Assembly (NCBI GenBank): GCA_963842945.1 | Contig: CAWJIM010000019.1 | Coordinates: forward strand, 160,001-224,000 | DNA: 64,000 nucleotides | Origin: an uncultured Gemmatimonadales bacterium | Lineage (GTDB): Bacteria > Gemmatimonadota > Gemmatimonadetes > Gemmatimonadales > GWC2-71-9 | Reading direction: 5' to 3' | Shown here: in pieces, positions 24,481-31,653 of the stretch | How positions within the stretch are numbered: the stretch's first letter is position 1 | Layout: each line of letters begins with the position of its first letter | The notes under the pieces: model-generated | Told to the model about the DNA's origin: nothing | What the model saw: only the letters and a program-made list of their open reading frames with translations | The model's database searches: none | Translations under genes and position numbers: made by a program

Positions 24481-25056
24481 ATGAACCTCGCCACGCTCGA
24501 CGCCGCCCTCCGCATTCTCGTCATCGTAGCCTTGTTGTACGCTTCGATCGTGGCCCTCACGTCCTGGGGGACACGGACCCGCCGGATCAATCCATTTGGA
24601 ACCTGGCCCCGCTTCGTTCGCCGGGTGAGCGATCCGCTTCTCCTCCGCTTGGAGCGCCGGGTCATTGCCGCTGGAGGCAGCCCGCAAACCGCCCCTCTGT
24701 GGCTGGTCGGGCTGGTCATCGCCGGCGGGCTCGTTCTCCTGAGCCTGACACACTGGCTGATCGGAATGGCTGCCGGTGTTTCGCTGGCCATCAGAAGCGG
24801 CCCCCGGATCTGGCTGCGCCTGCTGCTGAGCGCGCTCTTTACCATCCTGATGACGGCGCTGTTGATCCGGGTCATCGCATCGTGGTTCGGGATCGGCCCG
24901 TACAATCGCTGGATGCGGCCCATCGTAGCGCTGACCGGCTGGCTGATCGACCCGATCAGGAGAGTGCTTCCACCCTTTGGGATGATTGATTTCAGCCCCA
25001 TGGTGGCCTGGCTGGTGCTTTATCTGGTTCGCGGGTTTGTGCTGGGGATGATCTGA
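24481..25056 (+). CDS. YggT-family membrane protein
   Basis: Two YGGT repeats; LIDPIRRVLPPFGMIDFSPMVA. Confidence 0.88.
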   Translation: MNLATLDAALRILVIVALLYASIVALTSWGTRTRRINPFGTWPRFVRRVSDPLLLRLERRVIAAGGSPQTAPLWLVGLVIAGGLVLLSLTHWLIGMAAGVSLAIRSGPRIWLRLLLSALFTILMTALLIRVIASWFGIGPYNRWMRPIVALTGWLIDPIRRVLPPFGMIDFSPMVAWLVLYLVRGFVLGMI

Positions 25057-25067
25057 TCGCGCCCGAA

Positions 25068-25096
25068 TTGACTCCCTGCAGTCCGGCGGTTAACTT
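25068..25096 (+). promoter_or_regulatory. Sigma-70-type promoter of the metH leader
   Basis: TTGACT-N17-TAACTT, placing +1 just before the SAM-II aptamer. Confidence 0.7.
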
Positions 25097-25111
25097 GAGT
25101 TAACAATTGAG

Positions 25112-25159
25112 CCCGTGGCGATTTGCGCTGATTGCGGCCACGTAAAATAACCGCTAAAA
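25112..25159 (+). ncRNA. SAM-II (SAM-alpha) riboswitch aptamer
   Basis: CCCGTGGC-GATTTG-CGCTGA-TTGC-GGCCACG-TAAAATAACC-GCTAAAA. P1 is CGTGGC/GCCACG, with GAUUU, UUGC and terminal GCUAAA hallmarks. It lies upstream of metH. Confidence 0.88.
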
Positions 25160-25166
25160 CGCTACC

Positions 25167-25198
25167 CCTGAGGCGTTTTGGCTTCAGGTTTTTTGTTT
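25167..25198 (+). terminator. Intrinsic terminator of the riboswitch expression platform
   Basis: CCTGAGGC-GTTTTG-GCTTCAGG followed by TTTTTTGTTT. Confidence 0.8.
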
Positions 25199-25209
25199 GG
25201 GAGGTCTTT

Positions 25210-28971
<3,762 letters not shown>

Positions 28972-28972
28972 A

Positions 28973-30817
28973 ATGCCGACGCTGCGCGATCTGATCGGGG
29001 ATGGCCGGGTCCACGTGCTGGACGGCGCGATGGGCACAATGCTGTACAGCCGCGGCGTCTTCGTGAATGTGAGCTATGACGAGCTCAACCTGAGCCAGCC
29101 CGCCCTGGTGCGCGAAGTGCACGAGGCCTACGTCCAGGCCGGCGCGGAGATCCTGGAGACCAACACCTTCGGGGCCAATCCGGTCAAGCTCTCGAGCCAC
29201 GGGCTCGATGAGCAGACCGAGGTCATCAACCGCTCTGCCGTAGCCCTTGCCCGGCAGGCTGCCGGCCATCGCGCGCTGGTAATCGGCGCCATCGGCCCGC
29301 TGGGAATACGGCTGGAGCCCTGGGGACCGACGGCCCGGGGTGAGGCCATCGCGTTCTTCAGCCGGCAGGCCCGCGGCCTCCTGGAAGGCGAGGTGGACGG
29401 CTTCATCCTCGAGACCTTCAGCGATCTCAACGAGCTGGAGGCGGCACTCTGCGCCCTGCGCTCGCTCAGTGACCTGCCCATTATCGCCCAGATGACGGTA
29501 AGCCAGGATGGCAATACCAGCTACGGTACCTCGGTCGAGACCATCGCGTCGAAGCTGGACGAGCTGGGAGCCGACGTCGTGGGTCTGAACTGCTCGGTGG
29601 GCCCCGCAGCCATGCTCGACGGGATCGAGCGCATGGTCGAGCACACCCATCGCCCGATCTCGGCCCAACCCAACGCCGGATTGCCCCGGGCAGTGGATGA
29701 CCGGCGTATTTATCTCGCCAGCCCGGAGTACATGGGGTCCTACGCCCGCCGGATGATCCAGGCCGGCGCCCGTTTCGTGGGCGGTTGCTGCGGCACCACA
29801 CCGGATCACATTCGGAAGATCCACGCTTATGTGTCGAGCCTGCAGCCGAGACTCGTTGCAGCGGACCCCACTGCGCGAGCGCGGGAGCCGATCGGAGTAG
29901 CGCCTGCACCCCTGGCGGAGCGGTCCCGGCTGGGAGAGAAGCTGGCCCGGGGCGAGTGGGTGAATACGGTCGAGATCGCGCCACCGAAGGGTTGGAACGC
30001 CGCTGAGATGATCGAGCAGTGCCGCTCGCTGCAGGAGGCCGGGGTAGACGCGGTCAATGTGCTCGACAGCGCCCGGGCCCAGAGCCGAATGGGCGTGCTG
30101 CCCGCGGCCCTGATCGTCCAGCGTGAGACAGGCATCGAAACGGTGTTCCACTACACCTGCCGCGACCGCAACATGCTCGGCATGCTGAGCGACCTCCTCG
30201 GGGCGGCAGCCGGTGGGCTTCGCAACGTGCTGATCGTCACCGGCGATCCTCCCGCCATGGGACCGTACCCGGACTCCACCGCGGTGTTCGACATCGACAG
30301 CATCGGACTCATCAATGTCGTCCGGCGGCTCAACCAGGGGCTGGATCCGGGCGGAAACCAGATCGGCGAGCCCACCCGCTTTGTGGTTGGTGTCGCGTTG
30401 AACCAGGGAGCCGAGCAACGGCGCGAGCTCGAGAGATACGCCTGGAAGGTCGAGGCCGGAGCCGATTTTGCCGTCACTCAACCGGTATTCGATCCCGAAC
30501 AGCTGGCCCGGTTTCTGGAGCGGGCCAAATCGCCCGTCCCGGTCATCGCCGGAATCTGGCCCCTGACTTCGCTCCGGAACGCGGAGTTCCTGGCCAACGA
30601 GGTCCCCGGCGTTGTGGTGCCGCCAGGGATCATCGAGCGGATGCGGAAGGCGCAGGAACATGGATCTGCCGCAGCGCGCTTGGAGGGCGTTGCGATAGCG
30701 TCGGAAATGGTGGAGGCCGTCAAGAATCTGGTGCAGGGAGTTCAGGTAAGCGCATCGTCCGGCCGGGTCGGTGTGGCGCTCGAGACCCTCTACAGCAGCT
30801 CCACGATCTTACGGTAA
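28973..30817 (+). CDS. Bifunctional homocysteine S-methyltransferase / methylenetetrahydrofolate reductase (YitJ/SamT-like)
   Basis: LDGAMGT, GLNC and GGCCGTT in the N-domain; HYTCRDRN, VTGDPP and ADFAVTQP in the C-domain. Confidence 0.92.
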   Translation: MPTLRDLIGDGRVHVLDGAMGTMLYSRGVFVNVSYDELNLSQPALVREVHEAYVQAGAEILETNTFGANPVKLSSHGLDEQTEVINRSAVALARQAAGHRALVIGAIGPLGIRLEPWGPTARGEAIAFFSRQARGLLEGEVDGFILETFSDLNELEAALCALRSLSDLPIIAQMTVSQDGNTSYGTSVETIASKLDELGADVVGLNCSVGPAAMLDGIERMVEHTHRPISAQPNAGLPRAVDDRRIYLASPEYMGSYARRMIQAGARFVGGCCGTTPDHIRKIHAYVSSLQPRLVAADPTARAREPIGVAPAPLAERSRLGEKLARGEWVNTVEIAPPKGWNAAEMIEQCRSLQEAGVDAVNVLDSARAQSRMGVLPAALIVQRETGIETVFHYTCRDRNMLGMLSDLLGAAAGGLRNVLIVTGDPPAMGPYPDSTAVFDIDSIGLINVVRRLNQGLDPGGNQIGEPTRFVVGVALNQGAEQRRELERYAWKVEAGADFAVTQPVFDPEQLARFLERAKSPVPVIAGIWPLTSLRNAEFLANEVPGVVVPPGIIERMRKAQEHGSAAARLEGVAIASEMVEAVKNLVQGVQVSASSGRVGVALETLYSSSTILR

Positions 30818-31653
30818 CGCGCCTCGACCTGGTGAAAGCCCAGGTTGCTCAGGTACACCTTGTCCGCGCCGATCTCGCGAAGCATCCGGACCGAGCGGGC
30901 GCAGATAGCCTCCGGACTCATTCCGGCTTCGAATTCGCGGGTTAGTTCGGCGGCCGGGACCGGAAAGAAATCGGCCAGCTTGGCCAGGGTTGCAGGGTTG
31001 GCGCTGCGGTATAGAAACACCCCGAACACACCAGGATAGGGCACTTCTCTCCGGCGGGCCTCCTCGAGAAATCGCTCCACGGCGGCAATGCTGTGGTGAG
31101 ACACGATCTGCGTCAGATAAAAGTCCGCTTCGAATTTTGGATCCAGTAGAAAATCCACCTGTTCCTCAGCCGGCCGGTGCGGGTTGGCCCAGCCGCCCAG
31201 GTCCAGGCCGGGGACCCGGCGGCGGATCAGCGTCCGCAGCTCTCGCGCATGGGGAACGCACCGCGGCGGGCCGGCGGTGTGGTCACCACCCAACACCGTG
31301 AGCGCCTCGAAGCCGTAGGATGCGGCTCGCGAGGCATGCATCAGGCAGTACTCGATCGAATGCTTGGAGGTGAGGAAGGGAACGATGTGACGCGGATCGA
31401 CGTCGCCCGCCAGATTGGCGGTCAGATGGCCCAGGTTTTCCTCTTCCGAGAGCCCCACCGCATTATCCGTCAGGAAGATCACGGTGTCCCGGCGGGCCAG
31501 CCGCTGGATCGAGTGGTACATGTCGATCCAGAGCTCCATGCTGTCTGCCGACGACAGGCCGGTGCGGGGAGGCCGCAGCTCGACCGCCGCGAGGGGACGG
31601 TCCTGGCGGAGTCGCTGGAGCACGGAGCTTGCTGGACGTGAATCGATACCCAT
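30790..31653 (-). CDS. Divergent MTHFR-fold protein
   Basis: VELRPPR, LTDN, PFLT, VLGGD, ANP and ADFYLTQ follow the MetF motif order. Confidence 0.7.
   Translation of the reverse strand: MGIDSRPASSVLQRLRQDRPLAAVELRPPRTGLSSADSMELWIDMYHSIQRLARRDTVIFLTDNAVGLSEEENLGHLTANLAGDVDPRHIVPFLTSKHSIEYCLMHASRAASYGFEALTVLGGDHTAGPPRCVPHARELRTLIRRRVPGLDLGGWANPHRPAEEQVDFLLDPKFEADFYLTQIVSHHSIAAVERFLEEARRREVPYPGVFGVFLYRSANPATLAKLADFFPVPAAELTREFEAGMSPEAICARSVRMLREIGADKVYLSNLGFHQVEARYRKIVELL

Follow-up and report, generated by a model that had tools for sequence, protein, structure and literature searches.

In a Gemmatimonadales genome, metH and yitJ are preceded by a SAM-II riboswitch that likely turns these genes off by early termination of transcription when SAM is plentiful. 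The element was placed in the 5' leader of methionine/SAM genes (metH, then yitJ) within the window, meaning the whole 64-kb stretch of DNA that was analysed. A previous sequence-only reading had proposed a switch between a terminator and an antiterminator at this position, and that logic was supported by the Rfam match, by folding and by conservation. The element is genuine and is probably functional as a transcriptional SAM-II riboswitch. The features of the locus are given in Table 1.

Table 1. Features of the metH-yitJ leader and adjacent genes, in window coordinates
Feature	Position	Strand	Evidence
yggT-family gene (upstream context)	24481-25056	+	ORF; Pfam YGGT, E 2.7e-19; syntenic in relatives
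Predicted promoter (-35 TTGACT 25068-25073, 17-nt spacer, -10 TAACTT 25091-25096)	25068-25096	+	Sequence; conserved position
SAM-II aptamer	25114-25162	+	RF00521, 38.5 bits; P1/P2 conservation; P2a covariation
P1	25114-25118:25138-25142	+	Numbering mapped to metX (PMC3303485, accessible text)
L1 (UUU)	25122-25124	+	Mapped to metX (PMC3303485, accessible text)
P2a (GCG:CGC)	25125-25127:25160-25162	+	Mapped to metX (PMC3303485, accessible text)
P2b (UUGC:GC(U)AA)	25132-25135:25153-25157	+	Mapped to metX (PMC3303485, accessible text)
Predicted antiterminator (aptamer 3' strand 25153-25162 with terminator cap 25173-25182)	25153-25182	+	Folding; conservation
Predicted intrinsic terminator (8-bp hairpin 25167-25188, U tract 25189-25198)	25167-25198	+	-13.0 kcal/mol; conservation
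Shine-Dalgarno GGAGG (25200-25204) and inferred CUG start codon (25210-25212) of metH	25200-25212	+	Sequence; aligned starts in relatives
metH, B12-dependent methionine synthase	25210-28971	+	NF007024, 2164 bits; TIGR02082, 1775 bits; both above cut-off
yitJ-type homocysteine S-methyltransferase/MTHFR	28973-30817	+	NF006396, 698 bits; above cut-off

Genes and signals of the locus

The downstream gene had been named metH in the sequence-only reading, and the scores of both protein models agree with that assignment; the product contained five Pfam domains. Reading of the junction between metH and yitJ gave a gap of 1 nt, and the two genes likely belong to the same operon. The closest relatives of the yggT gene were Gemmatimonadales records, 92-94% identical, and the genome was assigned to that order on this basis. 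On the opposite strand, a 287-aa ORF (30790-31653) converged on yitJ with an overlap of 28 nt and, at the thresholds applied, matched neither NCBIfam nor Pfam models.

The start of metH is most likely the CUG at 25210 behind GGAGG, as suggested by its alignment with GTG, TTG or CTG starts in 37 relatives. We rejected a longer reading frame that would begin at TTG 25132, within the aptamer, since an in-frame stop precedes the Shine-Dalgarno-linked start in 30 of the 37 relatives. The first such start in the window and the 37 relatives was GTG in 17, TTG in 11, CTG in 9 and ATG in 1, with ambiguous calls for L043 and L050; a non-AUG start was present in 36-37 of the 38 syntenic copies. A small GGUC/GACC hairpin (within 25200-25219) overlapped the end of the Shine-Dalgarno sequence and the start codon of metH. 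Together, the non-AUG start and this hairpin are possibly a built-in translation damper.

A promoter had been claimed for this leader. It was not listed by a consensus promoter scan, which returned 0 sites, and the -10 box TAACTT matches 3 of 6 positions; its position, however, was kept in family leaders. Matches to TA...T at 23-28 nt upstream of the aptamer numbered 86 among 123 such leaders, and ACAA matched 95 times at 11-14 nt upstream. From these motifs, transcription would start near 25103 (ACAA). An inverted repeat, GTTAACT-TG-AGTTAAC (25089-25104), spanned the -10 box and the inferred start in the window and was found in the closest relatives only; it may bind a protein or may have arisen by chance.

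SAM-II aptamer

Rfam model RF00521 (SAM-II) covered 25105-25177 (38.5 bits with a cut-off of 36, E 4e-5, model positions 1-79); no other Rfam model reached its gathering score in the 64-kb window. This covariance-model search had been suggested as a check of the SAM-II assignment, and it supported the class. The nucleotides of the SAM pocket were present (L1 UUU, UUGC at 25132-25135 and GCUAAA at 25153-25158). Every nucleotide that contacts SAM in the solved metX structure was found in the window aptamer by mapping to the accessible text of PMC3303485; U10-U12, U20-U21, G22 and U44-A47 of metX SAM-II 2QWY map one to one. The aptamer had been placed at 25112-25159 by the sequence-only reading. 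An aptamer is indeed located there, but its end was wrong and was corrected to 25162 because CGC at 25160-25162 is a strand of P2a. The whole antiterminator 10-mer therefore lies within the pseudoknot.

Conservation was assessed in 38 syntenic leaders, comprising the window and 37 of 42 Gemmatimonadota loci from a search for yggT relatives. Rows dropped from the analysis as a whole were L201, L209 and L272, which the pattern missed, L137 and L053, which lay at a contig end, and the syntenic loci L058, L063, L069 and L074, in which the 0-281 nt available behind yggT contained no aptamer. The core nucleotides of the aptamer were invariant across the 38 leaders, and P1 and P2, both invariant there, were 100% and 99.7% paired, respectively. 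Over 188 aptamers, P2a covaried (GGC:GCC, CGC:GCG, GCG:CGC); family counts of the pocket core in this set are partly circular because the search pattern demanded part of the core.

Predicted terminator and antiterminator

The predicted terminator hairpin begins 4 nt behind the aptamer and is followed by the U tract TTTTTTGTTT (25189-25198), at the coordinates originally proposed. A scan for terminator-like sequences found 1 with 0.8 expected, which alone is chance level; the case for a terminator comes from conservation, not from the scan match. In the 38 syntenic leaders, pairing of the hairpin was 89.8%; 3 of 9 pairs had changed on both sides, and the changes in the lower stem were compensatory. 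The loop, GUUUU(G/A), was kept in these leaders and was better conserved than the lower stem, its variation being essentially limited to U-G/U-A (25/13). In the family sample, 56 of 73 metH leaders passed the terminator test.

The 3' strand of the aptamer, GCTAAAACGC (25153-25162), is complementary to GCGTTTTGGC in the terminator cap (25173-25182). The sequence-only reading had described this pairing as 10/10 with one G-U and as exclusive of the terminator, and its letters and coordinates proved accurate; ViennaRNA adds an 11th pair, U25163-G25172. The antiterminator helix had an energy of -14.3 to -14.6 kcal/mol, and 0 of 200 shuffles of 25150-25182 folded as well (z -4.13). A perfect complement of the 10-mer occurred 10 times in 8.6 million genome positions, with approximately 6e-5 expected per 50-nt stretch. 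The antiterminator and terminator helices are mutually exclusive.

Pairing of the antiterminator was kept at 99.2% in the 38 syntenic leaders compared to 29-50% when slid, and the RNAalifold consensus fold of the leader alignment was the antiterminator. Its only regular variation in these leaders was U-G/U-A, and two-sided changes were absent among the 38 close leaders. Beyond the syntenic set, the 3' strand paired with the downstream 50 nt better than shuffles did (p<=0.05) in 46 of 73 family metH leaders, with 27 falling short of this threshold, versus 0 of 73 for the control L1 strand. Leaders of the window's own genus carried the 3'-strand pairing in 14 of 16 cases, a set that overlaps the syntenic one. 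Own pairings were stronger than swapped pairings (-11.9 versus -10.6 kcal/mol; 61 of 72 leaders; 0 of 10000 permutations), a result inflated by kinship because a tree-aware covariation test, itself underpowered, yielded only 2-3 independent pairs, a median p of 1 and no significance. For three control strands, own pairings were not better than swapped ones.

Folding balance and proposed mechanism

The two helices in the window were nearly equal in energy (-14.3 kcal/mol for the antiterminator versus -13.0 kcal/mol for the terminator); the medians over the 38 leaders were -14.3 and -15.6 kcal/mol, respectively. In an energy model without pseudoknot and ligand energies, barring the P2 strands from pairing, to mimic bound SAM, brought the terminator pair to 0.99-1.0, and the unliganded share of the antiterminator at equilibrium varied from 0.07 to 0.87 with the end of the transcript. 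When P1 was forced in this model, the antiterminator share was 0.93 in the window, but it exceeded 0.5 in only 18 of the 38 leaders. With so small a difference in energy, which helix prevails probably depends on folding order.

In the mechanism that we propose, P1 would fold first. With SAM present, the pseudoknot P2 and the triple helix would lock 25153-25162, allowing hairpin 25167-25188 to form; polymerase would then stop near 25195 and the operon would be off. With SAM absent, 25153-25162 would zip onto 25173-25182. The antiterminator strand is complete 6 nt before the 3' arm of the terminator, so that the hairpin would be blocked and polymerase would read through into metH. We infer from the folding model that the switch is under kinetic control, with a folding order that would favour read-through without SAM; the decision window would be roughly 15-20 nt of transcription by our estimate. 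Five RNA runs contained 8-9% of the sequence words, and four of them were aligned; all consisted of contigs, mostly from metH of other organisms, in which the leader was almost uncovered and transcript ends were not readable.

Alternative explanations

The terminator could instead be largely constitutive, cutting read-through regardless of SAM and releasing a small RNA that bears the aptamer, with SAM acting weakly or through RNA stability; we consider this unlikely. Terminator loops are normally free to vary, and a constitutive terminator leaves unexplained that the loop here is kept complementary to the aptamer strand. It would be consistent with the equilibrium model, which favours the terminator in 20 of 38 leaders when SAM is absent, and with a rival hairpin (GUGGCG 25115-25120 with CGCUAC 25160-25165) that releases the terminator of the window in the absence of SAM. 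That hairpin, however, requires opening of P1, and it was rejected as a conserved alternative because only 8 of 38 leaders can pair it in full. There is a precedent in S. meliloti: according to the accessible text of PMC9373788, the metZ SAM-II is predicted to terminate, whereas the terminator behind the metA aptamer releases a small RNA that bears the aptamer and showed no link to SAM. The same text reports no antiterminator for metA, in contrast to the 10-bp one in the window.

Control that is mainly or also translational, in which the SAM state alters access to GGAGG and the CUG start, is very unlikely, although the metX SAM-II provides a precedent (PMC10907184 and PMC3303485, accessible text), the metH start codon is weak, and the GGUC/GACC hairpin lies over the end of the Shine-Dalgarno sequence and the start codon. 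A few family leaders also run straight into the gene without a terminator (e.g. L006, L015, L018, L029). The Shine-Dalgarno sequence of metH is nevertheless 38 nt behind the aptamer and past the U tract, and its hairpin is predicted in both states. Whereas metX 2QWY hides its Shine-Dalgarno sequence in P2, the P2 of the window contains none and is followed by a terminator.

Least credible of all is that the aptamer is a variant for another ligand (such as SAH) or a relic, for although its RF00521 score is only 2.5 bits over the cut-off, no core nucleotide is missing or varies among the 38 leaders and the downstream genes fit feedback by SAM.

Distribution of SAM-II in the phylum

SAM-II was found in 91 of 100 sampled genomes of the family and in 106 of 150 other genomes of the phylum sample (98 of 104 within the order), with few or none in several other families of that sample and none in 14 control genomes. 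The view that this lineage is atypical for SAM-II was not borne out by these frequencies. A plasmid of Gemmatirosa kalamazoonensis also carried a SAM-II match. Of 127 family matches, 125 were parsed: 73 preceded metH, 18 yitJ, 16 a thrC-like gene and 18 other genes, mostly aspartate-family or sulfur enzymes.

The window genome had two further SAM-II copies (L001 and L002; G000 C13:14892-14965 and C12:13643-13716) before a thrC-like gene. Both had terminator-like hairpins and were on near-duplicate contigs with many frameshifts; the duplication is likely a strain mix or an assembly error. SAM-I was not found in the window genome (87% complete), and a search for SAH riboswitches gave no match in any genome, controls included, so that its negative outcome carries no information.

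Several copies had less expected surroundings. Of the 42 downstream frames scanned, 6 (L114, L163, L190, L193, L211, L228) were PanB-family genes (ketopantoate hydroxymethyltransferase) immediately behind a SAM-II with a terminator, although SAM would not be expected to control such genes. In L006, L015, L018, L029, L132, L170 and L191, SAM-II had no terminator and the gene started soon after P2, some without an obvious ATG or GTG start; these are possible translational versions. L213, L247, L252, L255 and L291 had no clear methionine link downstream (a receiver-domain protein, unassigned ORFs) or, on a Sinorhizobium medicae plasmid, a degenerate 3' strand.

Limits of the cap pairing and a second arrangement

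Pairing of the 3' strand with the terminator cap appears to hold in the family of the window and not in the sister family or in S. meliloti metZ, a mildly new observation that comes from comparing leaders. In the sister family it was found in only 4 of 25 comparable leaders. Neither S. meliloti metZ nor the copies of Shinella, Rhizobium metA and the Gemmatirosa plasmid gave a significant match, and the two thrC-like copies of the window genome fell short of significance (p 0.11 and 0.26); L291 was left unscored for want of a GCUAA anchor. On these counts, cap pairing as a general feature of SAM-II was rejected.

Aptamers with a GCCGC-type P2a had cap pairing in 0 of 30 cases. Their L1/P2a strand matched a conserved GCGGC in the 5' arm of the terminator, which 28 of 30 carried and which reached p<=0.05 in 15 of 30; sister-family leaders gave a weaker signal (5 of 18). 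In leaders of this type (e.g. L144, L157, L162, L177), the C of GCGGC was often bulged in the terminator. The yitJ leaders of the sister family (L223, L230, L240, L246, L250) all matched through the L1 strand (5 of 5) with a different sequence, and L223 had a compensatory change. Because these groups are clades, this second arrangement is a lead and not a result.

Comparison with known SAM-II systems

Linkage of SAM-II to terminators was noted at its discovery, with many representatives having a terminator between P2 and the gene (PMC1273637). SAM-II has also been described as occurring most often with terminators, by a mechanism not established (PMC2258182), and as preceding terminators in tandem systems (PMC9481103). 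As far as the accessible text of PMC1273637, PMC2258182 and PMC6061858 goes, the class is mostly transcriptional, and the Shine-Dalgarno picture belongs to the crystallised metX RNA, a minor subset according to the cited SAM-II paper. The sequence-only reading had taken SAM-II to be usually described as Shine-Dalgarno-occluding, a view at odds with these papers but understandable because a review (PMC10907184, accessible text) still presents SAM-II in this way.

The metA motif (RF00521 SAM_alpha; PMC1273637, PMC2258182, PMC6061858), as described in the accessible text, shares with the window a P1 plus pseudoknot aptamer, a promoter just upstream of P1, an intrinsic terminator between P2 and the gene, and a target in the methionine pathway. 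The window differs in its Gemmatimonadales host, a group for which we found no SAM-II report, and in its target, as the SAM_alpha targets given in the accessible text of PMC4239095 do not include metH-yitJ. It also has a predicted antiterminator helix, whereas none is named in the accessible text of the metA-motif papers; the word "antiterminator" is absent for the metA motif from that of PMC1273637.

The metZ element of S. meliloti (PMC9373788, accessible text) shares a predicted SAM-induced termination that yields a short leader RNA, and compact spacing. Its arrangement differs from that of the window because, in strain Ak57, the GCUAAA strand has no terminator complement (p 0.94), and the match to an arm of the terminator is instead made by the L1/P2a strand (p 0.05). 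The metXZ element of beta-proteobacteria, called a canonical SAM-II in the accessible text of PMC5473149, shares a proposed terminator-antiterminator mechanism. The antiterminator is speculative in the accessible text of PMC4239095 and sets regions 3 and 4 against the terminator stem, in contrast to the 3' strand against the cap in the window.

In a literature search in which subscription journals were thinly covered, we found no paper on SAM-II in Gemmatimonadota; the phylum may already be recorded in the annotations of Rfam or RefSeq. The accessible literature contained no reconstituted SAM-II termination; the step is predicted there, not wired or reconstituted. Terminator-linked SAM-II being already known, sparse documentation is confined to the host group and the exact pairing.

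Significance

These data extend a known riboswitch class to a phylum for which no report was found, with near universal presence in its main order. They also provide an explicit short base-pairing model for SAM-II termination that leaves the principles of SAM-II unchanged. A compact natural example is handy because most SAM-II biophysics has used the translational metX RNA even though most members are predicted to be transcriptional. There is about an even chance that SAM-II is the main methionine regulator in Gemmatimonadales and is wired to terminators in at least two ways: through the 3' strand and the cap in the window and most family metH copies, and through the L1/P2a 5' strand and the terminator arm in GCCGC-type and sister-family yitJ leaders. 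If true, the window element of approximately 95 nt would be a minimal model for how SAM-II causes termination.
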